NCBI GenBank assembly: GCA_964492495.1
Contig: CAZBKJ010000001.1
Coordinates: 2,251-66,250 of the forward strand
Length of the DNA: 64,000 nucleotides
Reading direction: 5' to 3'
DNA from: an uncultured Pseudomonadales bacterium
Lineage (GTDB): Bacteria; Patescibacteriota; Microgenomatia; UBA1400; UBA12028
Shown: positions 47,766 through 64,000 of the stretch, one piece after another
Numbering within the stretch: the first letter of the stretch is position 1
Layout of the letters: the number at the start of each line of letters is the position of its first letter
The notes under the pieces: generated by a model
The model's input: the letters and a program-made list of their open reading frames with translations, nothing else
The model's database searches: none
Told to the model about the DNA's origin: nothing
Position numbers and translations under genes: made by a program

Positions 47766-48404
47766 TTATGTCCGATCTGGATACGAACAGATATGGATAC
47801 ATGCCAAGGTGCCAAAAACCCCATCACTTCCTGATTTGTAGCGTGTTTCATAAATGACGTGGCATCTTCCTTCTTCTTCAAACTCTGAAAGTATTTTTAT
47901 AAGCGCATGAATGTAGTCGCTTGTAAATGATGGATGTTTTGAATTAATTGGTTCATTTCCACGATAATAGCCTGCCGGATCAATATCGATAGCCGCGCCA
48001 GCAAAGTGAGCACTCCATCCAATAGCAGCAAATGGACTTGTTTGTCGTAACTTTTGTTGAATTTCTTCCGTACGATACAAAGAAGTAACGGGTAGAAAGA
48101 TGTTGTCTGAGGGCTCTGAACTTCTATGTGTTTGTTGTTTCCACATAAGCATAATCTGCATGAAAAGTTCATATGCAGATTTTCGAACGGCTCGAGGTTC
48201 CTCATTCCTTCGAAGTACCCCTATCAAACGGTAATTCAACTCAGGATCTTCATCTGGAAGTTCAATAAAAAGTCCTGTTTTCAAGGCATCTGGTAAATCA
48301 AGAATGATTTCATCCTTCCAGCGATAGCTTTCCAAAAGTACTTGGTCTTGTACGCGAGCAGATTCATTCGCCTGAAGTTGTGAAGGAATATCTCGAACAT
48401 TCAT
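47766..48404 (-). CDS. peptidase M15 (VanY / D-Ala-D-Ala carboxypeptidase-like)
   Basis: SAHFAGAAIDID equals the SxHxxGxAxD zinc-binding motif of the LAS/VanY family. Confidence 0.6.
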   Translation of the reverse strand: MNVRDIPSQLQANESARVQDQVLLESYRWKDEIILDLPDALKTGLFIELPDEDPELNYRLIGVLRRNEEPRAVRKSAYELFMQIMLMWKQQTHRSSEPSDNIFLPVTSLYRTEEIQQKLRQTSPFAAIGWSAHFAGAAIDIDPAGYYRGNEPINSKHPSFTSDYIHALIKILSEFEEEGRCHVIYETRYKSGSDGVFGTLACIHICSYPDRT

Positions 48405-48519
48405 AGATGTTCTATTTTATCATTTTGTTCGTTTTCTCATTATGGGTGAAAATCTATTTTGGAACTCTTTTTGTCTCGTAGTGCTGTAAAATACCTCAAT
48501 TAATAGCATACGACTACGT

Positions 48520-49653
48520 ATGATCAGTAAAGAAGCTTCAGCTCCACAAATTCACTCATACTCTCACACATACATTCCTCAGGTCATCGATATACCATTC
48601 CAACTCAACGACGGTAATTTTGATATACCTCTAGGTTGGCACAATGTTGTTCCTTCACTTGCATACTTAGTGGACTATAGTTCGATTCAGCCAGTTCATA
48701 ATGGTGATCAGGTGGCAGAAAAAAAATCACAAGTCGAAAGAGAAAAAGACGTGCGACAAGCTATCGAAAATGATCTAAAAGATAAAGAAATTCGAATCAA
48801 GCAAATCTTCATGGAAGGTCAAAGTAGTGCTGACACTGTCAAACTCAATTATTTGTATTCTGTTCAGGAAAGAGCAGAAAGTAATCATGAAGAAAATATC
48901 CAAAACGCACAAGAATATGTTCTTCAAGCACTAGATGATGCTCGATCATTTTTTCCATCAACGCAAAGAATTCATTTTGAAATTTGGGTTCTCCCCATAG
49001 ATGAACAACAGCAGGAAAACAGTGAGTATGTATTTTCATCTCTATTTGCTGACCTTGGAAGCTTAATAAAGCGACGAGGAATATCAGTATCTGGAGGAAG
49101 CAGCTGTTTTATTATCTGTCTTCCAAAAAAAAGCTTCAGGGACTATATTCCAGATTCTTTCTCAGGAATCGAAACAAATACTATAAAAAGCAGTTTTGAT
49201 CAAAGTCTCTATGTACAAATACGGCATGAGATAACACACGGAATTCAAACAACTCTTGAAGGAGATAGCGATTTTGCAACAGAAGGTGTAGCAATGCTCG
49301 TAGAGGGTCTTTATCTTAACTCGAACTTTATTCATGGAAAAGTGCGTCGAGAAGATATCAATGTTGAAGAGATACTGGAGCTGGCGAATAAGCGCGATTA
49401 TGAAGGCTACTCTTCTTCAGAGCATATGCTCTACTGGGTATCACATTCACTCTTTCGGTTTATCTATGATTACTTTTACAGAGATGCAAATAAATTTGGA
49501 GAATTGCTAGACCTTCTGCGAAAGCCACAAAAACTATCCTTTTCAGAGGCATTTTATACAGTTTTTCAGATGAAATTTGAAGCACTTGTACCCATGTGGA
49601 AACATGAGATTTTCAGAGGTGAATTTCAAATAGAAAAATGGGAGAGCGAATGA
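48520..49653 (+). CDS. hypothetical protein with HExxH (HEITH) motif, putative zinc metallopeptidase
   Basis: 377 aa; AT-rich; VQIRHEITHGIQ. Confidence 0.4.
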   Translation: MISKEASAPQIHSYSHTYIPQVIDIPFQLNDGNFDIPLGWHNVVPSLAYLVDYSSIQPVHNGDQVAEKKSQVEREKDVRQAIENDLKDKEIRIKQIFMEGQSSADTVKLNYLYSVQERAESNHEENIQNAQEYVLQALDDARSFFPSTQRIHFEIWVLPIDEQQQENSEYVFSSLFADLGSLIKRRGISVSGGSSCFIICLPKKSFRDYIPDSFSGIETNTIKSSFDQSLYVQIRHEITHGIQTTLEGDSDFATEGVAMLVEGLYLNSNFIHGKVRREDINVEEILELANKRDYEGYSSSEHMLYWVSHSLFRFIYDYFYRDANKFGELLDLLRKPQKLSFSEAFYTVFQMKFEALVPMWKHEIFRGEFQIEKWESE

Positions 49654-50858
49654 AGAACAATATCGGCAGAAACGACCCTTGTCCTTGTGGAGCAATCAAC
49701 GCGGAAACAGGAAAACCAGTAAAGTACAAGAAATGTTGTTTCATTCATCCCATAGATATGCCATCTCAACTTGAATTTATGCAGATGAAGGTTGAAATGA
49801 TGCAAAAAGCAGTCACTATGAGAAACGTATTGAAAACTAAAGGCATTTTTATTGATTTCCCAGCCCCTGTAGTTTTCAAAGGAAAATCAATTTGGGCATT
49901 TGGCAGTGGGTTGTATTTCTATCCAAAAGAACACATGACCTTTCACGAGGGACTAATTTTTGTCCTTAGAAATCTTCTAGCAAAGGATAAAAAGTGGGTA
50001 GCAGAGCAAGAAGCAGTACCATTAGAAAAACGACACTTTATTTTGAAGTGTTATCACGAGTATCTTAAATGGAGAAATAAAAATAGTACACCTGAAAACC
50101 AAATAGGAGATGAAAAATGGAGAGCAATCCCAGACGGATTGACCAAATCTTTACTATCATTGGCATTTGACGTAGCTTGCATTATCCACGTTCATGGCCA
50201 CATACCTGAAAAAATCATTGAGCGATTGAAGAAAACCGACAACATCTATCAAGGTGCGAGATACGAAATAGCAGTTGCAGCAATTTTTGCTCGACTAGGA
50301 TGCAAGTTCGAGTTCTTAGATGAAAAACTAGATCATCTTACTCAAACACCTGGCCACTGCGAGTTCTTTGCGACAGATGAGGAAACGAACACTATTGTTG
50401 CAGTTGAAGCGAAAAGTAAGGTAAGAAAAGGTGTGTTGCATCAACCTGGGCAATCTACTGAGTTTCAACTATGGAACAATGTCACAGGTCCGTATAGAAA
50501 TGCCCTCAAGCAGAGTCCTGAGGATGTTCCGTTTATTGTATTTGTTGACGTAAACTCACCACCAACTCCCGGTCTAGATAAATTTGAAAAGCCATGGGCT
50601 AAGGAAATCTTAGAAAGTAGAGAGAAAACTCCACTGAACAAACCAGGGAAACCAGATCCTTGCACACTAATAGTCTATACAAACTATTCATACCATTACC
50701 AAACTGGTACTGAGGCTAAGGCAAATGAAGCAATTACAGTTGCTCCTGCTTATCCTAAGCACGCTGTCTCTGAATTATTTTTGAATAAGTTACAAATGGC
50801 AATAGAAAACTATAGCTTTATTCCAAATATTGAGTACGATGGTACAGTTAAAGGATAA
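49650..50858 (+). CDS. SEC-C motif-containing protein of unknown function
   Basis: N-terminal RNDPCPCGAINAETGKPVKYKKCC is a SEC-C zinc-binding motif; the rest is unassigned. ORF track start is 49638. Confidence 0.5.
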   Translation: MKNNIGRNDPCPCGAINAETGKPVKYKKCCFIHPIDMPSQLEFMQMKVEMMQKAVTMRNVLKTKGIFIDFPAPVVFKGKSIWAFGSGLYFYPKEHMTFHEGLIFVLRNLLAKDKKWVAEQEAVPLEKRHFILKCYHEYLKWRNKNSTPENQIGDEKWRAIPDGLTKSLLSLAFDVACIIHVHGHIPEKIIERLKKTDNIYQGARYEIAVAAIFARLGCKFEFLDEKLDHLTQTPGHCEFFATDEETNTIVAVEAKSKVRKGVLHQPGQSTEFQLWNNVTGPYRNALKQSPEDVPFIVFVDVNSPPTPGLDKFEKPWAKEILESREKTPLNKPGKPDPCTLIVYTNYSYHYQTGTEAKANEAITVAPAYPKHAVSELFLNKLQMAIENYSFIPNIEYDGTVKG

Positions 50859-50975
50859 GAGAGCAGCTCATTTCATGAATGTAATAAACTCTAAGGGTGT
50901 GACTCTTGAATGTCTGGAACAGTTTTGTCACATAGTTTGTGATCTGAACCTAACAGTAATTAATAAAGGCTGATA

Positions 50976-51737
50976 CTACTTGAAGATGTGACTTAACTGT
51001 TCAACCTCTTTGATCATCGATTCTAAAACTGTAGTTACTGGTTTCCCCTCAATAATGCTCTTTTCATTCAGAACAACCTCAAAGCGAAATTGCATTTTAA
51101 GGTTTGGCTCTGCATCAAGGGAATCCACAAAGAGCACATCACCAGGTTTAAGGGGAAAAAGGTTATCTGCAGGTCTAATAAATAATGGCATATCAGGAAT
51201 ATCATTGTCTTTCATTAATTTTTTCATTTGAGCAATCATTAGTGACCCTATATCCACGCTTCCAAAAGTTGAACCAACTGTAATAAGCAATCTATGCTTG
51301 TCAATGTTATTAAGCATTGCTATCGTCCAAAGAGTATCATTTCCTCCTTTGTATGGTTGTATGGAATCAATAAGTTTTAATTTTTTGCCAGATATACCTT
51401 TTGTCTTTCTCACTTTTTCTTTTTCATAAGTTTGAAGATCCTTTTCTATTGGGAAATATATATGCTTTGAGGATACTGTACCTTTGTTCTCTGAAATAAA
51501 TAAATCATAAGCTAAATGATCTAATGCGCTTCTGAGATTCTGAATAACATCACCAGAAATCAAGGCGATCTTATCAGGTACACTTGCTACATCCGTCAAA
51601 TAGTAGACGAGGCGTTTTGTCTGAGAATCTCTCCTGGTACCAATTCTGTATGGATTCGATGCGAAGAAAGCACTAATTTCTATTTGGAGCTCTCCCAAGT
51701 GTTGTTTGGCTCGATCAATTTTATTTATCCAGTTCAT
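50976..51737 (-). CDS. hypothetical protein
   Basis: 253 aa; AT-rich. Confidence 0.4.
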   Translation of the reverse strand: MNWINKIDRAKQHLGELQIEISAFFASNPYRIGTRRDSQTKRLVYYLTDVASVPDKIALISGDVIQNLRSALDHLAYDLFISENKGTVSSKHIYFPIEKDLQTYEKEKVRKTKGISGKKLKLIDSIQPYKGGNDTLWTIAMLNNIDKHRLLITVGSTFGSVDIGSLMIAQMKKLMKDNDIPDMPLFIRPADNLFPLKPGDVLFVDSLDAEPNLKMQFRFEVVLNEKSIIEGKPVTTVLESMIKEVEQLSHIFK

Positions 51738-52085: not shown

Positions 52086-52158
52086 TGACCCCACCCGAAT
52101 TCGAATCGGGGTTACCAGGATGAGAACCTGGTGTCCTAGGCCTCTAGACGATGGGGCC
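52086..52158 (-). tRNA. tRNA-Glu (anticodon CUC), 73 nt, CCA not encoded
   Basis: Reverse complement reads GGCCCCA-TC-GTC-TAGAGGCCTAG-GAC-A-CCAGG-TTCTCAT-CCTGG-TAAC-CCCGA-TTCGAAT-TCGGG-TGGGGTC-A. This gives a 7-bp acceptor stem (one GU), a 3-bp D stem as in bacterial tRNA-Glu, and a TTCGAAT T-loop. Confidence 0.85.
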
Positions 52159-52419
52159 ATGCGCCATTTTTTCTAAATGGTCCGTAAGCATGATCTTTAC
52201 AGCTCTTTTACCTTTTGTAGTTTTTAAGTAATTTTCTCTTCTTCTCGCATCTTTCTCTGAAAGAAACGCTTCGTAGAATATGAGTCGGACAGTACCCATT
52301 CTTTTTGTTGAATACACACCTTTACTGAGATGCTTACGGATTCTTTCTTTTAAGTTTGCCGTAAATCCTGTGTATATTTTCCCAGTATCTCTACTTTGTA
52401 AGAGATATACGTAATACAT
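52144..52419 (-). CDS. GIY-YIG nuclease superfamily protein (small, UPF0213-like); its last ~5 codons overlap the 5' end of tRNA-Glu
   Basis: YYVYLLQSRDTGKIYTGFTANLKERIRKH (GIY...YIG). The ATG is at 52419; the ORF track uses TTG at 52425. Confidence 0.7.
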   Translation of the reverse strand: MYYVYLLQSRDTGKIYTGFTANLKERIRKHLSKGVYSTKRMGTVRLIFYEAFLSEKDARRRENYLKTTKGKRAVKIMLTDHLEKMAHGPIV

Positions 52420-52488
52420 TAGCAATACTCTATCATGAACCAGAATAAATTCGATTCATGACCATGAACCGTGCTTTGCACTGGTTCA

Positions 52489-52628: not shown

Positions 52629-52919
52629 TCATGTATTGTACTTGAGTTTTTCAAAAATATGTCTTAACTGTATCTTTAGCTCTTTTTTTCCTTTACCACC
52701 TTTTAGATAAGTTTCTCTCTGCTTTGCGTCACTTTGTTCGACATACGCTTCGTAATATATGAGGACAAGTGGTCTTCTATACTTTGTGGCACTTACGAAT
52801 CCGTTTACATGAGCTTTATATCGAGATTTCAAATCGTGCGTAAAACCCGTATAAAGTTGCTTGTCTTTTCCTGAATACAAGATGTACATGTAATACATTT
52901 GTACATTTAATTTTATCAC
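52629..52919 (-). CDS. GIY-YIG nuclease superfamily protein (second tandem copy)
   Basis: MYYMYILYSGKDKQLYTGFTHDLKSRYKAH; the true start is probably MYYMYIL (52895). Confidence 0.7.
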   Translation of the reverse strand: MIKLNVQMYYMYILYSGKDKQLYTGFTHDLKSRYKAHVNGFVSATKYRRPLVLIYYEAYVEQSDAKQRETYLKGGKGKKELKIQLRHIFEKLKYNT

Positions 52920-52930
52920 GAAATGGGAGG

Positions 52931-53500
52931 TCAGATTCGTTCAGCCTGGATGATGAGTCGCTTCGTATCTAGAAAGCCTGTACAGGTATAGATTGTCAGC
53001 AATTCACTTTCAGTCGGGGCAATGTACTCAAGCTTGTCTGGAGAGGTTGTGACTTTTTTCGTGATTGTATACTCAAAAACAGTTTCATTGGCGGTTGTGA
53101 CACTGATAGTTTCTCCCACATTCACCTCATGAAGCTTTCCGAGGAGCTTTTTGTTGTTGTGACCGTAAAAAACGGTATTTCCTGGCGTTCCAGGCAGGGA
53201 TGATTCACTCCAAAACACGACGTGTGTAGGGGAAAGTACCCAAAAATCGTTCTTTTTTGCAAAAGCCTCCACTGGAGCGTCAATTTTGTCGGCTATTTTG
53301 ATCTGAACGGGGAATGTTGGGACAGACTCAGTCATGTTTTCGTTGGTACGTTCTTCTCTTGCCTGGGTGACGATTTGTTCCTCCTTGAGTACAGAGATGA
53401 CTGAAAATCCTAAAAACAGGACTCCAAGGAACATGAACAGGACTCCAAACCGCGTTTTATGTTTGGAAATCTGCATACGAGTCCGTATTGATTTCTGCAT
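52931..53500 (-). CDS. sortase (class unassigned)
   Basis: N-terminal TM anchor; catalytic His in TVFYGHNN; TLxTC motif (LLTIYTCTG); beta-barrel length. Confidence 0.7.
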   Translation of the reverse strand: MQKSIRTRMQISKHKTRFGVLFMFLGVLFLGFSVISVLKEEQIVTQAREERTNENMTESVPTFPVQIKIADKIDAPVEAFAKKNDFWVLSPTHVVFWSESSLPGTPGNTVFYGHNNKKLLGKLHEVNVGETISVTTANETVFEYTITKKVTTSPDKLEYIAPTESELLTIYTCTGFLDTKRLIIQAERI

Positions 53501-53646
53501 ATATTTGTATTAAAAATTATGTAGAGTGTTGCTCTCACAACACCTATAGTAATGATTAAAAGACTATTATAGAGGAAGAACGCGTAAACGCAATGTTATA
53601 GGTCTTCTCGTGTGAAATCCCCTCTGAGGTGAACCAGAATTACTGT

Positions 53647-53676
53647 TTGACTATAGGATAGTATTCTTGGTATAAT
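53647..53676 (+). promoter_or_regulatory. sigma70-type promoter: -35 TTGACT, 18-nt spacer, extended -10 TGgTATAAT
   Basis: Read from the sequence about 50 nt upstream of the 1605-aa ORF. Confidence 0.55.
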
Positions 53677-53726
53677 CCACTTCGCTTTTCTATCTGGAGC
53701 CGAATGCTGAAAACATCCTTTTATTC

Positions 53727-56700
53727 ATGGCCAATCTTGACATTATCATTCCAGTCTTTAATGAAGAAGCGACCATTGGCCCGTTAATTTCGCGGATCGA
53801 TAAGATACTTCGCAAAGAACACATCCCATATCATATAATTGTTGTGGATGATCGCTCTACTGACAGAAGCCTAGAACGAGTAAAAAAGGCAAGTCAAAGT
53901 TTCCCAATCACAGTTCTTAAGAAAAAAGGCCAGCAAGGAAAAGCTTTTTCTATTCTTGAGGGTATAAAAGCCTCGACCAGTGACTACATCTGTATGATCG
54001 ATGCCGATCTGCAGTATCCTCCTGAAGCAATTCCAGCGTTGTTTGATCTTGCACAGATATCCGGTGTCGCAGTAGCTCGTCGTATCACCTACGGTGGTTC
54101 TGTTGTCAGACGTATTGGAAGCAGAATACTTGCTTTTGTCCTAGGAAAGCTTCTGCATGGAATCCACTGCGATATGCAGTCGGGACTTAAGGTTTTTAAG
54201 AAAGAAATCACTGAGTTTATTAATGTCGACGAGATTACTCCTTGGGCTTTTGATCTTCCATTACTTCATGCCGCCAAACAAATGGGGTATGACATAGCAG
54301 AAGTTCCTATCGATTTCACTGAACGAGAAAATGGTGATTCAAAACTCACTCTTCTTGGTCCAACTGTACAGATTGCCAAGGGCGCGCTTCGATTAAAGTT
54401 CACAACGATCCATCCGCGAGTGATTCTTCCAGATACAAAAGAATCCATGAAAGGTGCAGGTTTTGTCCATAAAGGCAAGCGATTTATCACGCACTCAACA
54501 CTTCATCACTCAAAGAGTGCACTGCTTGTGATAACCCCAAGTCAAAAAACAGTTTTCTTTATTATTCTTGCTCTTTTTTGTTTTGGGGCAGTATTTGCGA
54601 CACTTTTTACCTTTAAGATTGCTGTTGCCATACTTTCATTTGTCTACTTTATTGATGTGTTGTTTAACTTTTTCCTTATCCTTCGAAGTCTTCAATCACC
54701 TCCAGAAATTAGTTCAGACAAGAACGAGATCTTGGCACTCAAAGATAAAGATCTCCCTGTCTATTCGATTCTATGTCCGTTGTATAAGGAAGCCCATGTT
54801 ATTCCTCAATTTGTTGAAAGTATTTCCAATCTTGATTGGCCAAAATCAAAGCTTGAAGTAATGCTTCTCTTGGAAGAAGACGATACGGAGTCAATCGAAG
54901 CAGTCAAAGACATGAACTTGCCTTCATATATTCGAAGTGTCGTTGTTCCAAACTCTCAACCAAAAACCAAACCAAAAGCATGTAACTACGGACTCAGTCA
55001 CGCGAAAGGCGAGTACTTGGTCATTTTTGATGCAGAAGACAATCCAGATCCACTTCAATTAAAGAAAGCGTACTTGGGATTCCAGAAGGTTGGTCCAAAT
55101 ATTCGCTGTTTGCAAGCAAAGCTTAATTACTACAACCCAACACAAAATGTCCTTACCCGCATGTTTACTGCAGAGTATTCACTCTGGTTTGACGTCATTT
55201 TGACGGGACTTCAATCCATTCAAACGACAATTCCTTTGGGTGGAACCAGTAATCACTTCCGCACAAAAGATCTGTTGGAGCTTGAAGGATGGGATCCGTT
55301 TAACGTCACAGAAGACTGTGACCTCGGAATCAGACTGTTTAAGCACGGCTACAAAACCGCAATCATCGACTCAACGACTCTTGAAGAAGCAAACAGTAAT
55401 GTTCTCAACTGGATTAGACAGAGAAGCAGATGGATTAAAGGCTACATGCAGACATATCTTCTCCACATGCGAGATCCTTTAGACTTTTTTAGTACACAAG
55501 GAATTCATGCATTATTGTTCCAGCTGACCGTTGGTGGAAAGATTGCCTTTATTTTAATCAACCCAATTTTGTGGGTTTTGACGATTTTGTACTTTACCTT
55601 AAATGCAGTTGTCGGGCCGACGATCGAAGCTCTGTACCCGTCAATTGTGTTCTACATGGCCGTGACATCACTTGTTTTTGGAAACTTCATGTTTATTTAC
55701 TACTACATGTTGGGTGCAGCAAAGCGTGAACAGTGGTGGCTCATGAAATGGATCTATCTTGTTCCGATCTATTGGTTGATGGTCAGTGTGGCTGCCTGCA
55801 TGGCTCTGTATCAACTGATAGTAAAACCACACTACTGGGAAAAGACCATTCACGGTCTACACCTAAAAAAAAAGCTTGAAAATGAAGCAAAAGAGACTGC
55901 AAAGGTTGTAACTGCATCTATTTTAGCCGAAGTTGAAACCAAAAAACCTCCTGTACAGCCAAGTGAGAGCACAGCCTACACAAAAAAAAGAATACAGTCG
56001 TTTGGAGTTTTCTCAAATCTTTTGAAGTATCGAAGAAGTTTCACTGGTATTTTCTCCAAGATTATCAAAGGTGAGTATCGTGGAGGAGCTTTACTTGTAG
56101 CGGCAACGATGGCAGCAAATGTGCTGAACATGGGAACAAACTTCTACATGGGGCATGCACTACGATTGACTGATTTTGCACTCTTTAATACATACCTCAG
56201 TTTGTTAAACATTATCTCAATCTTTTCTTCATCGCTTGGAACAACTGTCAATCAACGCTCAGCACACTTACTTGGAAAAATTGGGCATACACGTGCCGTC
56301 AATTTCTGGAGACATATAAAGAATCGAGTATTCTTTGTTTCTCTTATCCTCACTGGGCTGTGGGTCATCTGTATCCCGATGACAAGTTCATTTTTAAGTA
56401 TTGATTCCAATATACCGCTCTTATTGTTTACTCCAATTTTGCTTCTTCTTGGTATTAATGCTGTGAATCAAGGGTATTTGCGTGGAGCACTCGCCTTTGA
56501 ACTCGTTGCTGTTGTGACGATACTTCAGCCACTGACCCGGTTACTATCGACGATAATTTTCGGAGAGCTCACCTATGGTGAGTATGCGTACTTGTCGATT
56601 CCTACCGGAGTTGTAGTTGCAGCATTGGTTTCTCACTTCTTTGCGAGAAAAGGTGAGTCTGTGGAGATTGCACACAAAGATTTGAAGCTTCCAAAGACAT

Positions 56701-58544
56701 TTTTCTTTTTGGCTTTGCTTGCGAACCTCTCTTCTATTGGGTTCTTTAGTCTTGATAACATTTTTGTGGCTCACTATCTGACTGCACAAGAAACTGGACA
56801 GTATGGAATTCTGGGACTACTTGGCAAAATGATCTTCTTCTCCGGAAGTCTGATTACCGGCTTTATCCTTCCGATTACGGCTTTTCGTGAAGGAAAAGGG
56901 TTGTCATCAGATGCTGTGTTCAAGAAACTGCTTCTTGTTACTGTCGCAATTTCAACCCTCGCCTTCTTGGCTATCGGGGTAGGAATTCCCCTCATTGCAC
57001 CATACATGTTTGGGGCGAAGATCAATGCAATCAGGCCGTTCCTGACACTCTATAGTGCAAGTATTCTCCTCTATACAGTTTCTCAGGCAATTGTTCAGTT
57101 TCATCTAGCAAAGAAGAACTATGTGTTTGCTGTGGCTTCATTTGCGGTCACCTTGATTCAAGGGCTTTTACTCGCGCTGTTTCATCGAACTTTGGGTGAA
57201 GTGGTCATCGCCATGTTTGCCACAAGTGTGGTGAATATCGGGGTTTTATTGATTCTTCATGTGTTTTTAGAGCGGGTCACGATCGTACTTTCAAACATCA
57301 GAGATTTCTTTGATCTGCTTTTTGGAAAACTGCGACAGTCTTCTCGTTCGTTTGAAAAGAAAGATACCTATAGAGTTCTCATCTTTAACTGGAGAGATAC
57401 AAAACATAAATGGGCAGGTGGAGCAGAGATGTATGTTCATGAAATGGCCAAGAATCTTGTCAAAAAAGGACACAAGGTTACGGTCTTTTGTGGAAACGAT
57501 GGGAAGTCAGTTCGAAATGAAGTTGTTGATGGAGTACAGGTGATTCGTCGCGGTGGATTTTATACGGTCTATTTCTGGGCGTTTTTATACTATACTCTTC
57601 GACTTCGAAACTATGTTGATATTGTTATCGATAGTGAAAATGGAATCCCATTTTTAACTCCATTCTATGTGCGAAAACCAATCTATTTACTGATTCATCA
57701 TGTGCATCAGGAAATATTTCGAACGCAACTGCGATTCCCTTTATCTGAAATTGCATTGTTTATCGAAGGTGACCTGATGCCATTCTCGTACAAGAGACAT
57801 TCAGTTATTACGGTTTCAGAGTCCTCAAAAGAAGAAATCATTGATCTGGGTCTTGGAAGTGCAAAGACTATCAAAGTCATCAACCCTGGAATCGATCATA
57901 GTTTGTTTGGTCGTCAAAAGAAAACAGCCTATCCATCTTTAGTATATGTTGGTAGGCTGAAACCATATAAGAATATTGACACTGCATTGTATGCGTTTGC
58001 GACTGTTTTGGAAAAGTTCCCGCAGGCAAAGTTCTCTATCGCTGGACTCGGAGAAAGCCTACGTTCCTTGAAAGAACTAGCAAAGAAATTAGAGATTGAA
58101 CATGCGGTGACATTCTTGCAAAAAATTGATGACAAAGAAAAAGCACGTTTATTTGCTCGAAGCTGGGTGGCAGTCCAGCCATCAATGATTGAAGGCTGGG
58201 GAATCACAGTCATTGAATCAAACGCATCTGGAACACCTGTCGTTGCTTCCAATGTCAAAGGACTCAAAGATTCCATCAAAGACAAAGAAACGGGAGTATT
58301 GGTAGAGGTTGCTAATACAAAAGCGTTCGCTACTGCCATCGTTGATCTCTTTTCAAATGAAAAGAAACGAAACCAGATGAGTGAATCCGCATTGAACTGG
58401 TCGCAAAAATTTACCTGGGAAATAAGCACAAAAGCGTTTGTAACGGAGTTTAATTCTGGAATGCATGTGGAAGCACAATCACGAAAGAAACTTTCGTTTG
58501 ATCGTATGCCTGTGACGGCAAAAATGTATGAAAAAAGTCGATAA
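53727..58544 (+). CDS. 1605-aa multidomain glycosyltransferase fusion: GT2 (DPM1-like), TM, processive GT2 (QxxRW), ~430-aa polytopic domain (flippase/polymerase-like), GT4
   Basis: Uninterrupted ORF in the track. GT2-1: IIIPVFNEE...VVDDRSTD...DADLQYP. GT2-2: VYSILCPLYKE...FDAEDNPDP...QRSRWIKG. Polytopic block of more than 12 hydrophobic helices spans residues ~760-1190. GT4: YRVLIFNWRDTKHKWAGGAEMY... and EGWGITVIESNASGTPVVAS...ETGVLVE (EX7E). Confidence 0.8.
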   Translation: MANLDIIIPVFNEEATIGPLISRIDKILRKEHIPYHIIVVDDRSTDRSLERVKKASQSFPITVLKKKGQQGKAFSILEGIKASTSDYICMIDADLQYPPEAIPALFDLAQISGVAVARRITYGGSVVRRIGSRILAFVLGKLLHGIHCDMQSGLKVFKKEITEFINVDEITPWAFDLPLLHAAKQMGYDIAEVPIDFTERENGDSKLTLLGPTVQIAKGALRLKFTTIHPRVILPDTKESMKGAGFVHKGKRFITHSTLHHSKSALLVITPSQKTVFFIILALFCFGAVFATLFTFKIAVAILSFVYFIDVLFNFFLILRSLQSPPEISSDKNEILALKDKDLPVYSILCPLYKEAHVIPQFVESISNLDWPKSKLEVMLLLEEDDTESIEAVKDMNLPSYIRSVVVPNSQPKTKPKACNYGLSHAKGEYLVIFDAEDNPDPLQLKKAYLGFQKVGPNIRCLQAKLNYYNPTQNVLTRMFTAEYSLWFDVILTGLQSIQTTIPLGGTSNHFRTKDLLELEGWDPFNVTEDCDLGIRLFKHGYKTAIIDSTTLEEANSNVLNWIRQRSRWIKGYMQTYLLHMRDPLDFFSTQGIHALLFQLTVGGKIAFILINPILWVLTILYFTLNAVVGPTIEALYPSIVFYMAVTSLVFGNFMFIYYYMLGAAKREQWWLMKWIYLVPIYWLMVSVAACMALYQLIVKPHYWEKTIHGLHLKKKLENEAKETAKVVTASILAEVETKKPPVQPSESTAYTKKRIQSFGVFSNLLKYRRSFTGIFSKIIKGEYRGGALLVAATMAANVLNMGTNFYMGHALRLTDFALFNTYLSLLNIISIFSSSLGTTVNQRSAHLLGKIGHTRAVNFWRHIKNRVFFVSLILTGLWVICIPMTSSFLSIDSNIPLLLFTPILLLLGINAVNQGYLRGALAFELVAVVTILQPLTRLLSTIIFGELTYGEYAYLSIPTGVVVAALVSHFFARKGESVEIAHKDLKLPKTFFFLALLANLSSIGFFSLDNIFVAHYLTAQETGQYGILGLLGKMIFFSGSLITGFILPITAFREGKGLSSDAVFKKLLLVTVAISTLAFLAIGVGIPLIAPYMFGAKINAIRPFLTLYSASILLYTVSQAIVQFHLAKKNYVFAVASFAVTLIQGLLLALFHRTLGEVVIAMFATSVVNIGVLLILHVFLERVTIVLSNIRDFFDLLFGKLRQSSRSFEKKDTYRVLIFNWRDTKHKWAGGAEMYVHEMAKNLVKKGHKVTVFCGNDGKSVRNEVVDGVQVIRRGGFYTVYFWAFLYYTLRLRNYVDIVIDSENGIPFLTPFYVRKPIYLLIHHVHQEIFRTQLRFPLSEIALFIEGDLMPFSYKRHSVITVSESSKEEIIDLGLGSAKTIKVINPGIDHSLFGRQKKTAYPSLVYVGRLKPYKNIDTALYAFATVLEKFPQAKFSIAGLGESLRSLKELAKKLEIEHAVTFLQKIDDKEKARLFARSWVAVQPSMIEGWGITVIESNASGTPVVASNVKGLKDSIKDKETGVLVEVANTKAFATAIVDLFSNEKKRNQMSESALNWSQKFTWEISTKAFVTEFNSGMHVEAQSRKKLSFDRMPVTAKMYEKSR

Positions 58545-59451
58545 CACAACTGTATTTCCAGCAAAAATACAACACTACACATTGTTTGAAGTTTTGTCAG
58601 ACATCAACGAAAAAAGTGCATATCATTTTGCGATCTACACAAACAGATCCGGAAAGAAGTTTTTTTGCAAGCTCTGGACTGGTGAAAAGAAGGATCAAGA
58701 TTTTACCTGGATAAGCAATGAAATCGGCGTGTACCAATTCTTTGATTCTACCTACAAAACGCATCAAAAAGAAATCAAAAAAAACTTTCCTGACATTAAA
58801 ATTCCAAAAATGTATGTTTCAAGCATAGAAGACTCACTAGCCTATTTCCTTACTGACTTTATTGAAGGTAAACCACTGGAAGGTTTGAGTGACGACAAGA
58901 AAGCTGTCGTTTTTCAACGAGTGATTCAGTATTTTCATTTCATGAGCTCACTGGCAGTTTCACAGCAAAAAACATTACGAGTTTTTGGAGCCACACGGTT
59001 GTTCTTACTTTTTCACTACTACATCATAAAAGTAGCTTTGAGTTCAAAAATTCATTACAAAAGTTTGCTTCAGATTCTTTGGAAGTTTTATGTCGGGTTT
59101 TTTGAGCTTATACGAACAAATCATTTGTCGTTTGTACATAGAGATCTGGGATTTGCTGATAACATTATTTTGCAAGGCAAAACGATTGCTATTATCGACT
59201 TTCAACTTTCAGTGCTTTCCAATCCACTCATGGAGATTGCAAATATCACAATCGCTTTGTGGAATGAAAAGAAACTTCGTACCAAGTTCTTAAACTCTCG
59301 ATATGTAAGTAGTTTACTTGATGATGAAGGAAAGAAAAAACAAATGAATGCCTTCTTAGCTCATGCATTTTTAGTATCAACCGCACTGCAGTTAAATCTC
59401 AAGAAGTTTAATGGAACGTATATGATCAAACGATTTTCACCAATCGTGTAG
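58528..59451 (+). CDS. protein-kinase-like fold phosphotransferase (APH/choline-kinase family)
   Basis: SFVHRDLGFADNIIL (HxD...N catalytic loop) and IAIIDFQ (DFG-equivalent). Confidence 0.5.
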   Translation: MKKVDNTTVFPAKIQHYTLFEVLSDINEKSAYHFAIYTNRSGKKFFCKLWTGEKKDQDFTWISNEIGVYQFFDSTYKTHQKEIKKNFPDIKIPKMYVSSIEDSLAYFLTDFIEGKPLEGLSDDKKAVVFQRVIQYFHFMSSLAVSQQKTLRVFGATRLFLLFHYYIIKVALSSKIHYKSLLQILWKFYVGFFELIRTNHLSFVHRDLGFADNIILQGKTIAIIDFQLSVLSNPLMEIANITIALWNEKKLRTKFLNSRYVSSLLDDEGKKKQMNAFLAHAFLVSTALQLNLKKFNGTYMIKRFSPIV

Positions 59452-59463
59452 AACACTCTTCTT

Positions 59464-60384
59464 ATGAAAAAACCTTCAGTGTCTATCGCGATTCCAGCAT
59501 ATAACGAAGAAACGATGATTGAGTCGGTTCTTCTGTCGCTTGTGGCGCAAAAAGCGAAAAAAATATCACTGACTGATATTACGATCTATTCAGACAATAG
59601 CACCGATAAAACCCATGCAATTGTTCGAAGTCTTGCAAAGAAATACACGCTTATCAAACTCAAAGCAAGTACACAGAGAATTGGGAAATACTACCGAATG
59701 GGTCAGATGTTTGCACACTGCACCAGTGATGCTCTTGTGGTTTTGGATGCGGATATTGCGATTGTTCAAGATAATTTTTTGGAAAAGCTAGTCGAGGTTC
59801 TGGTAAAAGATCCCAAAGCCACAATGGTCGCTGCTCATCAGAAGTTGATTCGACCAAAAGATGTGATGGGGAAGATACTGCACACCCATTTTGTTCTCTG
59901 GGATTTTGTACGATGGAGTGTTCTTGACTTCCAAAACGCCAATAATTTTTATGGCTCAGCTACCGCATTTCGTGGTTCATTTGCTCGAAGTATCAAGATA
60001 CCAAAAAACCTCACTGATCCACATCTCTACTTGTACTTACTTGCAGACAAAGTAAAAGGGTTTCGCTATACAATGAACGCTGTTATTTTACAACAATCGA
60101 TCAGTACCTGGAGTGATTTCGAAAAGTTCTTGGACAGACCATTGGGCAAAAAAGATGAGGAGCTAGAAAAAATTACTGGTGTTGATTCAGAGACAGTTCA
60201 CCTTATACCTTGGAAATATAAAATCAAGGGAATACTTCGCTGTTTCTTGTGGCAACCGATCTATACTTTTCCGGCTCTTGCCCTCGTGGTGTATATGAAA
60301 ATACGTCCCGCGAAGAAAACCTACACATCTTCGCTCTGGAAGATTGTGAAGTCTACCAAAAAACCCATTTCCCATGAAAACTAA
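59464..60384 (+). CDS. glycosyltransferase family 2
   Basis: VSIAIPAYNEE...IYSDNSTD...LDADIAIV (the DxD region). Confidence 0.8.
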   Translation: MKKPSVSIAIPAYNEETMIESVLLSLVAQKAKKISLTDITIYSDNSTDKTHAIVRSLAKKYTLIKLKASTQRIGKYYRMGQMFAHCTSDALVVLDADIAIVQDNFLEKLVEVLVKDPKATMVAAHQKLIRPKDVMGKILHTHFVLWDFVRWSVLDFQNANNFYGSATAFRGSFARSIKIPKNLTDPHLYLYLLADKVKGFRYTMNAVILQQSISTWSDFEKFLDRPLGKKDEELEKITGVDSETVHLIPWKYKIKGILRCFLWQPIYTFPALALVVYMKIRPAKKTYTSSLWKIVKSTKKPISHEN

Positions 60385-61483
60385 CAAGCGCCTGCGTGTC
60401 GTATTCTCTAGTTACGATGATGTTACCAACCCCTATTATGCAGGTGGTGGTGCTCGTGCAATTCATGAAGTTGCAAAAAACATGCGACAAGATTTTGATA
60501 TTCGTGTAATTAGTTGGAATCATAGTGGGAAATCACATGAAAAAATTGACGGAGTTACCTATAGACGAATTGGCTTTTCCTTCATCCCGCCAAGAGTTGG
60601 GATGTTTTTGTTTCAGCTGTTGTTACCGCTGTTTTGTCTAACCCAATCATTTGATGTGTGGATTGAGAGCTTTGGACCTCCATTTACCACGTCATTCTTA
60701 CCTTGGTTTACGCGTAAACCTGTGGTTGGTGTAGTTCATATGCTTGCGTCTGCTGAAATTAAAAGAAAATATGGAATCGATCTTTCTTCACTCGAAAATC
60801 TTGGAATTTCCCAATACTCAAAAATCATAGCGACTCAGCCAGCCATGCAAAAAGAAATTATGAGAATCAATCCTCAAGTTGTCTGCAGTGTGATTGAAAA
60901 TGGAGTAAACCTGCCAACTATTTCAAGAAAAGAGAAGAACACAATTCTTTTCCTGGGGCGAATAGAAATGAATCAAAAAGGCATTGACTTGCTTTTGAAG
61001 ATATTCTCACTCTTACCTGTGAAGTTTCAACAGCGATACACATTAGCTATTGCGGGTAGTGGCTTGAAAAAAGAAGAAGAGAAACTCAAAAAAGCGATTG
61101 CCGCTGTAAACAAACATGGCTCGATACAGTTTTTAGGAAGGGTAGAAGGAACGAAAAAAGAAACATTGCTTGCAGAGTCTTTATGTATGATGATTACATC
61201 CAGGTTTGAAACCTACTCGATGGTGGCACTTGAAGCCTTGATTTCTGGATTACCAGTCCTGTGTTTTGATATCCCAGGTTTACAGTGGATGCCAGAAAAT
61301 GGAGTGAAAAAAATACCAAGCTTTGATACCAAGAAGTTCTCATCCTCACTTCGACTTCTGCTTGAAGATACGCAGTCACGAAAACGGATGAGTACAGCTG
61401 GAAGAGCATACGCAAAAACTCGTACTTGGGATCATGTCGCTGATGCCTATATCTCGTATATACACAAACAGTTCTCTGTATGA
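60374..61483 (+). CDS. glycosyltransferase family 4
   Basis: GT-B C-terminal lobe with E..7..E (ETYSMVALEALISGLPVLCFD). Confidence 0.8.
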   Translation: MKTNKRLRVVFSSYDDVTNPYYAGGGARAIHEVAKNMRQDFDIRVISWNHSGKSHEKIDGVTYRRIGFSFIPPRVGMFLFQLLLPLFCLTQSFDVWIESFGPPFTTSFLPWFTRKPVVGVVHMLASAEIKRKYGIDLSSLENLGISQYSKIIATQPAMQKEIMRINPQVVCSVIENGVNLPTISRKEKNTILFLGRIEMNQKGIDLLLKIFSLLPVKFQQRYTLAIAGSGLKKEEEKLKKAIAAVNKHGSIQFLGRVEGTKKETLLAESLCMMITSRFETYSMVALEALISGLPVLCFDIPGLQWMPENGVKKIPSFDTKKFSSSLRLLLEDTQSRKRMSTAGRAYAKTRTWDHVADAYISYIHKQFSV

Positions 61484-62241
61484 TTTCCAATTCACTTGTC
61501 ACTAAAATCATTGAAAGCAAAAAAGAATGTGTGTTTATTTCACCACATTTTGATGATGTCATCCTTTCATGCGGTGAGCTTTTGCGACAGCTATCAGGCA
61601 AAGTGACGATCACTGTCGTAAACGTCTTTACCAAAGCACATTCAGGTCCGTACACAATCTCGGCAAAGAAGTTTTTGAAAGATTCAGGACACACAATGGA
61701 TGCTGTGAAACTGTATAAGAAGCGTCTTTTGGAAGATACAGATGCTTTTGCTGAGTTTGATGTCAAGGTAGTGAATCTTGGGCTGACGGATGCTCTTTTT
61801 CGAAAAAAGAAAAATCCATCTATATTCGGAAAAGTGCTTGCTGAGTTTGATCATGTCTACCCTACATACCGATGGCATATGACAGCACTATCATCCAAAG
61901 ATGAGGCACTGACAACCTTAGAAAGCAAATTGCATGCGTACACTGGAGAAGACACCCTAGTGTTTTCTCCTATTGGGATTGGCAGTCATGTCGACCATCT
62001 TGTTGTGAAAAAAGTATGCGAAAAGTTGTTCCCGCATATCGTTTTTTATGAAGATTTTCCATACAACGTGCGAATTGGTCAAACAAAACAGCAAACGTCA
62101 CTCAAAGAACGATTTGAAGTCGTTCCCACAATGGAGCAGAAAACCAAAGATATTCAAAAATACGCTTCACAATATGTTGGCCTTTTTGAAGGAAAAAGCG
62201 TACCTCTACACACTGAAGTGTATTTTTCAAAAGCACTATGA
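61480..62241 (+). CDS. PIG-L/LmbE family N-acetylglucosaminyl deacetylase
   Basis: ISPHFDDVILSCGE and GIGSHVDHLVV (the metal-binding HxDD/HxxH motifs of PF02585). Confidence 0.75.
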   Translation: MISNSLVTKIIESKKECVFISPHFDDVILSCGELLRQLSGKVTITVVNVFTKAHSGPYTISAKKFLKDSGHTMDAVKLYKKRLLEDTDAFAEFDVKVVNLGLTDALFRKKKNPSIFGKVLAEFDHVYPTYRWHMTALSSKDEALTTLESKLHAYTGEDTLVFSPIGIGSHVDHLVVKKVCEKLFPHIVFYEDFPYNVRIGQTKQQTSLKERFEVVPTMEQKTKDIQKYASQYVGLFEGKSVPLHTEVYFSKAL

Positions 62242-63302
62242 TCACAACAAAAAAATTTACCACACTCGATGAATCATTTCTCTCCGAATGGTTAGAACTC
62301 TGGAAGAATTCGTCAGAGAAAAATTTTGTGAACTCACCTGCGTGGATCGCTGCGATCAAAGAAGCATTTGGATTTACAGAGAATGTGTTTATAGGGGTGT
62401 ATAAAAACTCAGAACTGGTAGGGGCTGCTGGCTTTGTAAAAGAGAAAAGATTTGGACTTTCGTGCTACACCGTTCCTCCTGGTGATTTCGTCTCAGGCGT
62501 ACCACTACTTCTAGACTCGAGCGACTTTGCTGTGGTACGTGCATTTGTAAGGGAGTTTGTACAACTTGGCACTGTATTTTTTGACAATGTTCCAGAATCC
62601 TTTGTATCCGTACTTCAAAAAGAGACAACAAAGATTCTGGCTGTGCCTTTTAGTATCAATTTGTTCCTTCGATTTGAAGCTGATGAGAAGGGAAAAGTAA
62701 TCATCACCAAACGAAAAAGGCTTCTTCGGGAGTCAAAGCCAATCGAAGATAAAATTCGGTTTGAGTCCTTTGAAGGAAACAATGAAGAGCTTTTGCAAAT
62801 TGCTTTCGACATTGATCGTAAAAGCACAAAACACAGTAAAGGCTACGATGCATTTGCTGATAAAACTATCCAGAAATTTTATCGCTCTCTTGCGAGCTAT
62901 TTTGGTTCGTACCTGCGACTAAACTTCTTGTATATCGATAGCGTACCGGTAGTCTATGAGATGGGATTTTTGATTGGGGATACGTACTACGGTAGTCAAA
63001 TTGCATTTGATGAAAAATACAGAGAGTTCTCACCGGGTAAAGCATTTGAAGTGAAGCTCATTGAATGGCTCTTTGCAAATGAAGTGAAAAAGATTGATTA
63101 CGGTTCAGGAGATAACTTTATTAAACGCACACTGTGTACTGAGCACAACCAACTGTATAAAGTCGTTGTATCTGCAAACATTTTTGTGAGGCTGTATATA
63201 GGTTTGTTATATTTTTCTAAAGATCGTGTCTTTACATTTCTGACAAATAATCCACGACTGTACTCACTGTATCGTTCTATCCGAAAAAGCATTGGACTAT
63301 GA
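62238..63302 (+). CDS. FemAB-like/BioF2-like GNAT acyltransferase (Acetyltransf_6 / CelD-like)
   Basis: 354 aa; WLELWKNSSEKNFVNSPAWIAA...; C-terminal GNAT core (KIDYGSGDNFIKR). Confidence 0.5.
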   Translation: MITTKKFTTLDESFLSEWLELWKNSSEKNFVNSPAWIAAIKEAFGFTENVFIGVYKNSELVGAAGFVKEKRFGLSCYTVPPGDFVSGVPLLLDSSDFAVVRAFVREFVQLGTVFFDNVPESFVSVLQKETTKILAVPFSINLFLRFEADEKGKVIITKRKRLLRESKPIEDKIRFESFEGNNEELLQIAFDIDRKSTKHSKGYDAFADKTIQKFYRSLASYFGSYLRLNFLYIDSVPVVYEMGFLIGDTYYGSQIAFDEKYREFSPGKAFEVKLIEWLFANEVKKIDYGSGDNFIKRTLCTEHNQLYKVVVSANIFVRLYIGLLYFSKDRVFTFLTNNPRLYSLYRSIRKSIGL

Positions 63303-64000
63303 ACAGATACACCATACAAATATTCCAGCAGGTTGACGATCAATTGAAAAAATCTTGGAGAGAATTGTGGGAAACAAGTAGTAACGGAAATGTCTTTAAT
63401 TCGTACGAGTGGTTTGAGATGAGTCTTCAATCACTTTCGTTTACTCGCTATGAAATTGTCGCCTGTTTTGAAGGAAAGAAGCTCGTAGCAGTATTCCCGC
63501 TCACACCATCCAAATGCTTTGGAATACCAGTATGGGTACCAGTCGGACATGAGTTTATTGTCGATACAACACTGCTACTTCAAGATTATTCAAAAGAGTT
63601 GGTTTCTTTCTTTTTTTCTCAGGTTTTGAGAAATAGGAATGTGTACATAACAACGCTCGATGAACGGATCGTGTCGCTTCTTTCGGAGATCGATTCAAAG
63701 CTCTTTTTCTCGCTTATTTCTGTGAATCCATACATTGATTTTGGTAAAGATCCACTTCGATATGTCTCAGGTTCAAATAAAAAAACGATGCGTAAAGTTA
63801 TCAAAAATATGGGGTCTGACCTCGAGTTTGTCGAGTGTGTCACTCAAGAAGAGAAGGAAGAAGGATTTGCCAAAATGGTTGAAATTGAGCAAAAGAGCAG
63901 TAAAAAACAGCAGTCTAAGGATATCTTCGCCAAAGCTGAAAATGTCAATTTTTACTCGAATATAGTAAAATACAGTGGTAGGTTCGTGAGAATCTTTTTT
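63299..64000 (+). CDS. second FemAB-like/BioF2-like GNAT acyltransferase (paralog), truncated by the window end
   Basis: Hand-translated MNRYTIQIFQQVDDQLKKSWRELWETSSNGNVFNSYEWFEM... parallels the N-terminus of the preceding gene. ATGA start/stop overlap; not in the ORF track because no stop falls in the window. Confidence 0.5.
   Translation, partial: MNRYTIQIFQQVDDQLKKSWRELWETSSNGNVFNSYEWFEMSLQSLSFTRYEIVACFEGKKLVAVFPLTPSKCFGIPVWVPVGHEFIVDTTLLLQDYSKELVSFFFSQVLRNRNVYITTLDERIVSLLSEIDSKLFFSLISVNPYIDFGKDPLRYVSGSNKKTMRKVIKNMGSDLEFVECVTQEEKEEGFAKMVEIEQKSSKKQQSKDIFAKAENVNFYSNIVKYSGRFVRIFF

Follow-up and report, generated by a model that had tools for sequence, protein, structure and literature searches.

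The window analyzed here, a 64-kb stretch of contig CAZBKJ010000001.1 (GenBank assembly GCA_964492495.1; 64,000 nucleotides), encodes on its forward strand (53727..58544) a protein of 1605 amino acids (aa) that carries four modules in one chain, GT2a - GT2b - MOP - GT4: a predicted polyprenyl-phosphate glycosyltransferase (GT) of family GT2, a synthase-type and probably processive GT2, a predicted flippase domain of the MOP superfamily, and a GT4 enzyme. We put at about 0.5 the probability that the gene for this single-chain megaenzyme heads an operon for a surface glycan in which two assembly routes are coupled. The reading is built on the modules, their motifs and folds, the conservation of the fusion, and the linkage of the megaenzyme gene to others.

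A conserved four-module polypeptide

The open reading frame (ORF) of 1605 codons begins with ATG and contains zero internal stops according to the ORF list and its translation, in agreement with the uninterrupted ORF described in the original prediction. The proposed order of the four modules was likewise confirmed by Pfam matches, orthologs, invariant motifs, and the fold of the MOP domain. Pfam families above the gathering score were PF00535 (aa 6-131), PF13641/PF13632 (aa 346-627), and PF13439 together with PF00534 (aa 1231-1557), and Kyte-Doolittle hydrophobic segments were located at about aa 272-318, 593-694, and 868-1177.

Among 5.8 billion proteins searched, 1384 matched at E<=1e-10. 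The best 120 of these, referred to below as the 120 orthologs, are all but one 1527-1638 aa long, with 46-62% identity to the query over 97-100% coverage, and they originate from NCBI, JGI, ENA, and Logan assemblies, that is, from different projects and assemblers. Where names are given, they read "glycosyltransferase" of Patescibacteria, Microgenomates, Gottesman-, Woese-, or Levybacteria; the family occurs mostly in Microgenomates-type Patescibacteria. Many "MAG TPA_asm" records titled uncultured Gammaproteobacteria, Bdellovibrionales, or Pseudomonadales (L001, L002, L009, L010, L012, L014, and others) also carry the megaenzyme gene, with Patescibacteria-type neighbors, and their taxonomic labels look unreliable.

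In contigs sampled at one genome per species, at least 595 stretches with relatives were found. Architectures and neighboring genes were counted on 80 retrieved species-representative loci (numbered L001 onward) by scoring hidden Markov models (HMMs) of the individual modules. The full four-module chain is a single ORF at about 19 of the 80, and at least 10 architectures exist in which the modules are fused or encoded by adjacent genes. These include GT2b+MOP+GT4, which lacks GT2a; GT2a+GT2b beside MOP+GT4 as adjacent genes (8 loci); GT2b beside MOP+GT4; GT2b beside MOP; GT2a+GT2b+GT4, which lacks MOP; GT2a+GT2b alone; and GT2b by itself, in many cases close to a separate DPM1-like gene (L054, L059, L069, and L071). 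Throughout, the module order is GT2a, GT2b, MOP, GT4, and a fused GT2a is always N-terminal and joined directly to GT2b. MOP and GT4 are associated with each other across loci (p=6e-4). In L036:743-6513 and L045:9923-15576, the fused protein retains only the C-terminal 6-helix half of MOP and is followed directly by a complete standalone MOP gene, which looks like an intermediate of domain replacement or gene fission. The survey of related genomes for a split version of the gene thus revealed natural splits, which support functional coupling of the modules and do not refute the fusion.

The same modularity is evident when the MOP segment is taken as the query. A word-indexed search with this block gave just 3 hits, hydrophobic words saturating the candidate list, and was replaced by an exhaustive search of representatives, which yielded 122 representative clusters at E<=1e-30. 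In these, MOP is standalone (~410-470 aa), followed by ~400 aa (total length, ~720-860 aa), or internal to longer proteins (~1300-1610 aa).

Frameshifts, whether real or sequencing derived, do occur in this family: GT2a and the remainder of the protein lie in overlapping ORFs in L001, L017, and L019, and in L026 there is a break inside MOP. Such cases lend some substance to the idea that separate genes were joined into the long ORF by an assembly error or a frameshift, an explanation whose probability is nevertheless negligible given more than 120 independent full-length orthologs, the roughly 19 full-length ORFs among the 80 loci, which lie in many species-representative genomes, and a linker that is in frame. 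The last point concerns aa 701-800, which are variable and gappy between conserved flanks. The fusion was therefore not created by assembly.

Glycosyltransferase modules

GT2a (aa 1-232; 53727..54422, forward strand) is recognized by sequence matches and motifs as a DPM1/ArnC/GtrB-like polyprenyl-phosphate glycosyltransferase module. Its closest solved relatives, Pyrococcus DPMS (5mlz; E=1e-25 over aa 4-208), ArnC (1e-15), and GtrB (2e-12), are all polyprenyl-monophosphate glycosyltransferases. The segment DADLQYPPE (aa 92-100, with DAD at 92-94) aligns with DADLQHPPE of DPMS and DADLQNPPE of ArnC, and the juxtamembrane segment RENGDSK (aa 200-206) aligns with RARGESK and REFGDSK of the same two proteins; both motifs are invariant in the 120 orthologs, with D92-A-D94, Y97, and P99 among their residues, as is D41/D42. 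Hydropathy and an AlphaFold2 (AF2) model assign as the membrane anchor of GT2a the transmembrane (TM) helices at aa 271-323, which are common to GT2a and GT2b. They form the N-terminal TM pair of the synthase (aa 271-290 and 292-323 in the AF2 model), and together with the conserved juxtamembrane motif GAG..HK.K.FITHT.L.H..SAL they make up aa 238-323 (54438..54695, forward strand). GT2b-only relatives start near query residue 230-250.

The catalytic domain of GT2b (aa 330-580; 54714..55466, forward strand) was delineated by Pfam, invariant motifs, AF2, and Foldseek. It carries D385/D386, D435-A-E-D438, G505-G-T-S-N-H-F-R512, T528-E-D530, and Q565-R-S-R-W569, and the D, DxD, TED, and QRSRW residues are invariant in the 120 orthologs. 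Hydropathy, AF2, and Foldseek place C-terminal interface and TM helices behind it (aa 584-699; 55476..55823, forward strand). The AF2 model of GT2b, with a predicted local distance difference test (pLDDT) score of 84, begins with the N-terminal TM pair and continues with a GT-A domain, an interface helix bearing QRSRW, and more membrane helices. Foldseek ranked the hyaluronan synthases of Chlorella virus (CvHAS, 4e-16) and Xenopus (XlHAS1), BcsA, and chitin synthases such as Chs1 highest, the alignments spanning about 460-510 columns; for BcsA, the TMq was 0.55 and the root mean square deviation 6.5-6.9. On the strength of these models and motifs, GT2b is predicted to be a processive GT2 of the hyaluronan/cellulose/poly-N-acetylglucosamine (PNAG)-synthase type. 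Its best near-full-length NCBIfam match is PgaC/IcaA (8e-29), at 101 bits versus a cutoff of 422, and every NCBIfam equivalog score for GT2b is far under the respective cutoff; therefore, its product cannot be named. The JGI label "XagB" led in the literature only to Xanthomonas biofilm, and no product assignment was gained from it.

At the C-terminal end, the GT4 module (aa 1216-1575; 57372..58451, forward strand) is of the GT-B, retaining type as judged by Pfam (PF00534, 146 bits; PF13439, 61 bits) and by its EX7E motif at E1489..E1497, with both glutamates invariant in the 120 orthologs. It resembles retaining enzymes of the MshA (3c4q, 3e-18), BshA, and PimA type. Matches to PF20706 ("GT4-conflict") reflect generic GT4 similarity, and no defense-system reading was drawn from them.

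The central MOP domain and predicted topology

Between GT2b and GT4 lies a block (aa 780-1200; 56064..57326, forward strand) for which ortholog scans, AF2, and Foldseek jointly predict a 12-TM flippase module of the Wzx type. When orthologous central segments were scanned, PF01943 was matched by 14 of 42 (best, 3e-11), MatE by 3, and PF13440 by 1, and two standalone PF01943 proteins match the window's central block at E=5e-13 and 4e-10. Pfam scans of two junction regions returned nothing or noise. The AF2 model of the block, computed from the window segment aligned with full-length database proteins, has a pLDDT of 91.5 and a predicted TM-score (pTM) of 0.88 and consists of 12 long helices plus a C-terminal helix. 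Its top Foldseek match is the lipid III flippase WzxE (9g95; E=1e-7, TM-scores of 0.71/0.73 over ~429 columns), followed by MATE and MurJ. A comparison of the MOP-block profile with PDB sequences produced solely a spurious match to orexin-receptor TM segments and was replaced by this fold comparison. By these models, the chain contains at its center a divergent MOP domain of the Wzx type rather than a continuation of the synthase, an alternative that the original prediction had asked to be checked. Its expectation of a flippase-sized block of ~12-14 helices stands as far as the fold is concerned, with the helix number at 12 and not 14.

The block is preceded by a variable Lys/Arg-rich linker (aa 700-779; 55824..56063, forward strand), which has the lowest conservation of the chain and contains indels. 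Between its flanking TM segments there are 25 Lys and Arg versus 9 Asp and Glu residues, and this K/R-rich composition fits a cytoplasmic location of the linker. The predicted layout is therefore a cytoplasmic GT2a, 2 TM helices, a cytoplasmic GT2b with its interface and TM helices, the cytoplasmic linker, the 12-TM MOP domain, and a cytoplasmic GT4; all three transferase domains must face the cytoplasm. Spacers between GT2b and GT4 in relatives, assessed by a crude count of hydrophobic peaks, fall into three classes: a long one of about 450-540 aa with ~12 peaks (30 proteins), an intermediate one of 262-283 aa with 6 peaks (L029, L036, and L045), and a short one of 56-123 aa with 0-2 peaks (6 proteins). 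Natural deletions thus take 6-helix halves or the whole of MOP, so that GT4 stays inside the cell, which supports an N-in/C-in topology of the MOP domain.

The megaenzyme operon and its probable GT-C partners

Genes following the megaenzyme ORF in the window are on the same strand, and the first five of them overlap or abut one another by 4-17 nucleotides. They encode an APH-family kinase-like protein (58528..59451), whose gene overlaps the megaenzyme ORF by 17 nucleotides and has an ortholog at the same place in L082; a soluble GT2 of 306 aa (59464..60384), from a family present in 47 of the 80 loci; a second GT4 of 369 aa (60374..61483); a PIG-L/LmbE-family de-N-acetylase without TM or signal segment (61480..62241); a FemAB-like Acetyltransf_6 protein of 354 aa (62238..63302); and a second FemAB-like protein truncated by the end of the window (63299..64000), with 45% identity to its L082 counterpart, Fem2. 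The GT4, de-N-acetylase, and first FemAB-like assignments are from domain matches, and the earlier neighbor calls for this side, as well as for the sortase upstream, proved correct.

Clustering of all neighbor ORFs at the 80 loci revealed further downstream families on the same strand, designated c1, c3, c4, c6, and c7. The first two are multispanning proteins with resemblance to GT-C-type enzymes: c1 (GT-C_A; ~542 aa, ~10 TM), found at 58 loci, with PMT_2 matches for 10 of 34 members (best, 4.6e-8) and PMT matches for two, and c3 (GT-C_B; ~517 aa, ~12 TM), found at 47 loci, with PMT_2 matches for 4 of 36 members and a TMEM260-like match for one. They are distant paralogs of each other (hhalign probability, 97%). 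Family c4 (35 loci) is a secreted hydrolase-like protein of ~419 aa with one TM, weak Glyco_hydro_cc matches, and a CarboxypepD_reg domain, and c7 (18 loci) is a CE4 deacetylase. In L082, whose megaenzyme ortholog has 60% identity, the same seven genes occur in the same order and are followed by c3 (624 bits), c1 (764 bits), and c4 (357 bits). From this collinearity we infer that the operon probably continues past the 3' end of the window with GT-C_B, GT-C_A, and the secreted c4 protein.

Associations were tested on the 54 loci with at least 9 kb of downstream sequence. GT-C_A is present at 52 of these, whatever the architecture, and GT-C_B at 40; the latter tracks the GT4 module, being found at 38 of 42 loci with GT4 versus 2 of 12 without it (p=2.3e-6). 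In three minimal loci (L039, L042, and L046), GT-C_A directly follows GT2a+GT2b. In Chloroflexota (Ktedonobacteraceae and Chloroflexia), synthase and c1 are themselves fused (L070:10387-14328, L076:4238-7240, L077:3781-6780, and L078:9776-12781), and a search with one such fusion returned >100 proteins of ~990-1450 aa with GT2 and precomputed PF13231 matches, mostly from Ktedonobacteraceae, which are annotated only as glycosyltransferase or cellulose-synthase-like. Two tiers are thus visible: a core of GT2b and GT-C_A, usually with GT2a and the secreted hydrolase-like protein, and an accessory tier of MOP+GT4 and GT-C_B. The designation of the protein as an all-in-one, self-contained machine consequently has to be abandoned, since its gene is part of a larger conserved operon that also encodes two GT-C-type enzymes, a secreted hydrolase-like protein, and proteins for tailoring, and since relatives have its modules as separate genes or lack some of them.

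The tight core also bears on a different order of events, which we consider unlikely. A lipid-primed line would have GT2a prime polyprenyl phosphate, GT2b elongate and thread the chain, and GT-C_A transfer it en bloc to a wall, lipid anchor, or protein acceptor, with MOP, GT4, and GT-C_B forming a side branch. The invariably N-terminal position of fused GT2a directly on GT2b, the placement of GT-C_A immediately after GT2a+GT2b in the minimal loci and on the C terminus of GT2b in many of the Chloroflexota proteins, and the existence of the core without MOP or GT4 would all suit such a line. In contrast, the solved HAS, BcsA, and Chs synthases, which belong to the GT2b class, are not known to require a polyprenyl primer; the GT2b+GT-C_A fusion of L078 has no GT2a within ~9 kb; and the placement of MOP between GT2b and GT4 would be left unexplained.

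The PMT_2 family also takes in ArnT-like lipid and glycan modifiers, so the matches of c1 and c3 do not specify a protein acceptor. This matters for another, improbable explanation, protein O-glycosylation, in which the sugar loaded by GT2a would be flipped by MOP and transferred by the GT-Cs to Ser/Gly-rich secreted proteins, including sortase-anchored ones with an LAxTG signal, the GT2b polymer being a separate product. It would account for the PMT_2, PMT, and TMEM260-like matches of the GT-C families and for the clustering of the LAxTG family c6 (18 loci), c4 (35 loci), and sortase (21 loci) with the operon, a sortase gene also lying just upstream of the megaenzyme gene in the window. However, the LAxTG family is missing from most loci and from the window, and it is the synthase, rather than these proteins, to which GT-C_A is linked or fused.

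The c6 proteins themselves are ~200 aa long and Ser/Gly-rich, ending in LAxTG, a TM helix, and a basic tail. Their sorting signals are non-canonical (LANTG, LATTG, LASTG, and LAPTG; examples are L011:23885-24520, L016:12249-13124, and L030:22607-23230, with 15 other loci). The c6 gene usually adjoins a sortase gene at the distal end of the glycan operon, and c6 proteins are probable sortase substrates in Patescibacteria; a sortase is encoded within 10 kb at 21 related loci.

Pathway type

Three-component glycosylation systems pair a GtrB-type undecaprenyl-phosphate-sugar synthase with a flippase and a GT-C enzyme (PMC11127046). The Group A carbohydrate pathway, for instance, has the GT2 protein GacI, which makes undecaprenyl-phosphate-linked N-acetylglucosamine (GlcNAc-P-Und), the Wzx-family protein GacK as the proposed flippase, and GacL as the GT-C, with a polymer as the acceptor (bioRxiv 10.1101/180810). 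Counterparts of all three components are present here, with the GtrB-like GT2a and MOP in the megaenzyme ORF and the GT-Cs placed in the operon by way of collinear L082. By this analogy, GT2a, the GT-C enzymes, and the cytoplasmic tailoring proteins match three-component logic.

Recurring operon genes encode more GT2 and GT4 enzymes, CE4 and PIG-L deacetylases, methyltransferases, pyruvyl transferases, and FemAB-like enzymes. No TM or signal segments are found in the window's kinase, GT2, PIG-L, and FemAB-like proteins or in most CE4 members, so tailoring must take place at the cytoplasmic side of the membrane, with a sugar carried by a nucleotide or a lipid as the substrate. Among the variable operon genes (e.g., L081:23372-23992) are those for NodS-like and other methyltransferases, polysaccharide pyruvyl transferases (3 representatives), DegT-type aminotransferases, and RmlD/epimerase proteins, suggesting lineage-specific glycan decoration. 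An APH-like kinase gene directly follows the megaenzyme gene at 11 loci (e.g., 58528-59451 on the forward strand of the window and L003:8022-8951 on the reverse strand); together with the nucleotidyl-transferase genes of some loci, it could form a sugar-1-kinase/uridylyltransferase salvage pair feeding the pathway.

Repeat-unit pathways typically include MOP/Wzx proteins and GT4/GT2 enzymes, and the hallmark of the Wzx/Wzy pathway is an initiating phosphoglycosyltransferase and a Wzy polymerase encoded with the flippase (PMC11127046). A classical pathway of this kind merely co-translated with an unrelated synthase, the modules being functionally uncoupled, would thus explain part of the gene content, as well as the extra canonical Polysacc_synt flippase of a few loci. 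We nonetheless judge it highly improbable. Among 120 representatives of unclassified operon genes, a sample in which families present in at least 2 of the 120 would be visible, no initiating phosphoglycosyltransferase, Wzy, or ligase recurred, and the precomputed Pfam tables of L081 and L082 contain neither an initiating phosphoglycosyltransferase nor Wzy. Furthermore, the four modules were repeatedly fused, split, and re-fused in conserved order and adjacency, which is unexpected for unrelated functions. The original prediction had also allowed for a polymerase-like element and for a teichoic acid-like product; neither a Wzy-like component nor an initiating enzyme was seen to recur in the operons, and support for a teichoic acid-like product was not obtained.

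Proposed mechanism

Returning to the megaenzyme as a device that couples two assembly routes, we propose the following scheme, in which the substrates, the order of steps, and the pairing of each GT-C with its donor are inferred. GT2b would polymerize a beta-linked backbone from a nucleotide sugar and extrude it via its own membrane channel, while GT2a would charge the polyprenyl phosphate of the inner leaflet with a sugar, most likely a hexosamine. The lipid-linked sugar could then be modified by PIG-L or CE4 de-N-acetylases, FemAB-like N-acyl/aminoacyl transferases, extra GT2 and GT4 enzymes, and the fused GT4, and the MOP domain would flip the product. Outside the membrane, the two PMT_2-like GT-Cs would use lipid-linked donors to decorate the emerging polymer or its acceptor, with GT-C_A tied to the synthase core and GT-C_B to the MOP+GT4 branch. 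In this form the system would be a previously undescribed hybrid, in which a synthase-dependent polymerase and a lipid-carrier branch consisting of GtrB-type loader, Wzx-type flippase, and GT4 are hard-wired in one polypeptide and dedicated GT-Cs decorate or anchor the emerging backbone, a proposal we advance tentatively.

Several observations weigh against the coupling of the two routes. As regards the membrane modules, the window's own central block (aa 780-1200) compared alone with Pfam gives no match at E<=10, MOP is the least conserved module in the 120 orthologs (GT2b is the most conserved), and secondary structure alone does not fix how many helices cross the membrane behind the catalytic domain of GT2b. 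As regards the GT-Cs, the assignments of c1 and c3 derive from weak PMT_2 matches, a GT-C_A profile found no solved relative among PDB sequences, and HMMs of c1, c3, c4, c6, and c7 run across the 64-kb window matched nowhere. Finally, GT-C_A accompanies GT2b even without a nearby GT2a (L076-L078), and the MOP-lacking lineages L034, L035, and L048 keep both GT-Cs, implying that in them flipping is dispensable or supplied in trans.

Comparison with known systems

As in the GtrB/GtrA/Gtr*, ArnC/ArnEF/ArnT, CsbB/GtcA/YfhO, and GacI/GacK/GacL systems, a DPM1/GtrB-like GT2, a flippase, and one or more GT-Cs are encoded together here, and the flippase domain of the megaenzyme is Wzx-like, as is GacK. 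By analogy with ArnD, a deacetylase acting on a lipid-linked sugar is plausible for the PIG-L and CE4 genes of the operon. Unlike in those systems, the polypeptide that unites GT2 and flippase also includes a processive synthase and a GT4, two GT-Cs are encoded instead of one, and the acceptor polymer is apparently made by a synthase and not by an ABC-transporter or Wzy route.

GT2b shares with HAS, BcsA, chitin synthase, PgaC/IcaA, and NodC the D, DxD, G..FR, TED, and QxxRW motifs, two N-terminal TM helices, and interface and TM helices after the catalytic domain, with structural matches over the whole module. In contrast to this group, it has no PilZ or cyclic di-GMP module and no BcsB- or PgaD-type partner, and it is fused or linked to GT2a, MOP, GT4, and GT-C. 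The MOP domain, like Wzx/WzxE proteins (PF01943), has 12 TM helices in two 6-helix halves; it differs from them in its position in the middle of a multienzyme chain, in its strong divergence, and in the lack of an initiating, undecaprenyl pyrophosphate-forming enzyme in the locus. In the cellulose synthase:phosphoethanolamine transferase complex BcsA-BcsG (PDB 9fmv and 9fmz), too, a modifier physically coupled to the synthase appears to decorate the polymer emerging outside the membrane, whereas the modifier here would be a GT-C needing a flipped lipid-linked sugar, with the donor-supply enzymes fused to the synthase.

Fusion of an enzyme to the flippase of its own product is known from MprF, a lysyl-phosphatidylglycerol synthase whose folds and substrates are unlike those of the megaenzyme. 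In Haloferax, the DPM1-like GT2, MOP-like flippase candidate, and GT-C of archaeal N-glycosylation (AglD, AglR, and AglS) are separate proteins.

Promoter and upstream region

Upstream of the megaenzyme ORF, a putative sigma-70-type promoter (53647..53676, forward strand) consists of TTGACT, an 18-nucleotide spacer, and an extended -10 element, TG-n-TATAAT. The near-consensus extended -10 promoter of the original prediction could thus be located: the candidate site matches 11 of 12 consensus positions plus TG and is the sole such site and the best in 52900-59600, the total of promoter-like sites in the region showing no excess over shuffle expectation. The sortase gene (52931..53500, reverse strand), identified by a domain match, is oriented divergently.

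Genes at 47769-51737 were left out of the system because their products have no TM segments and they are not conserved beside the megaenzyme family. One of them (49638-50855, forward strand) encodes a 406-aa protein with an N-terminal SEC-C-type metal-binding motif (CPCG...KKCC) and no Pfam match; of the 80 loci, only L057 has a homolog, which is encoded upstream of the synthase. Two tandem ORFs of ~95 aa (52147-52425 and 52632-52919, both on the reverse strand), flanked by an unknown gene and the sortase gene, have GIY-YIG-like N termini (YVYLLQS..GKIYTGFT and YMYILYS..KQLYTGFT) and weak homologs in L020, L041, and L058.

Significance

In the usual teaching, bacteria make their surface polysaccharides by one of several alternative routes, which depend on a synthase, on Wzx/Wzy, or on an ABC transporter. 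Here, hallmark proteins of two routes are united with a polyprenyl-phosphate sugar synthase in one conserved chain. Taken singly, the modules are all of known types. The novelty lies in their architecture and in the coupling it implies between a synthase-dependent route and one that uses a lipid carrier, a flippase, and GT-Cs. In the literature searched (full text), no description of the four-module fusion or of the synthase-GT-C partnership was found, in keeping with the earlier remark that a described case combining two GT2s, a flippase-sized polytopic domain, and a GT4 was not known.

The splitting and rejoining of modules across hundreds of species provides a natural map of the steps that need joint action, and the fixed stoichiometry and proximity of loader, flippase, and synthase would make the protein attractive for structural work on the hand-over of lipid-linked sugars to a flippase. 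Synthase-GT-C linkage that reaches Chloroflexota suggests a general, undescribed partnership; under the hybrid model, the evolutionary core of synthase and GT-C would be common with the GT2-PMT_2 fusions of Ktedonobacteria/Chloroflexota. The hosts of the megaenzyme are almost all uncultured, and their envelopes are poorly known. Because the protein is large, conserved, and encoded first in its operon, it is a good candidate for their main wall or surface glycan machinery, and Microgenomates-type Patescibacteria may rely on the hybrid system as the principal one for their envelope glycopolymers.

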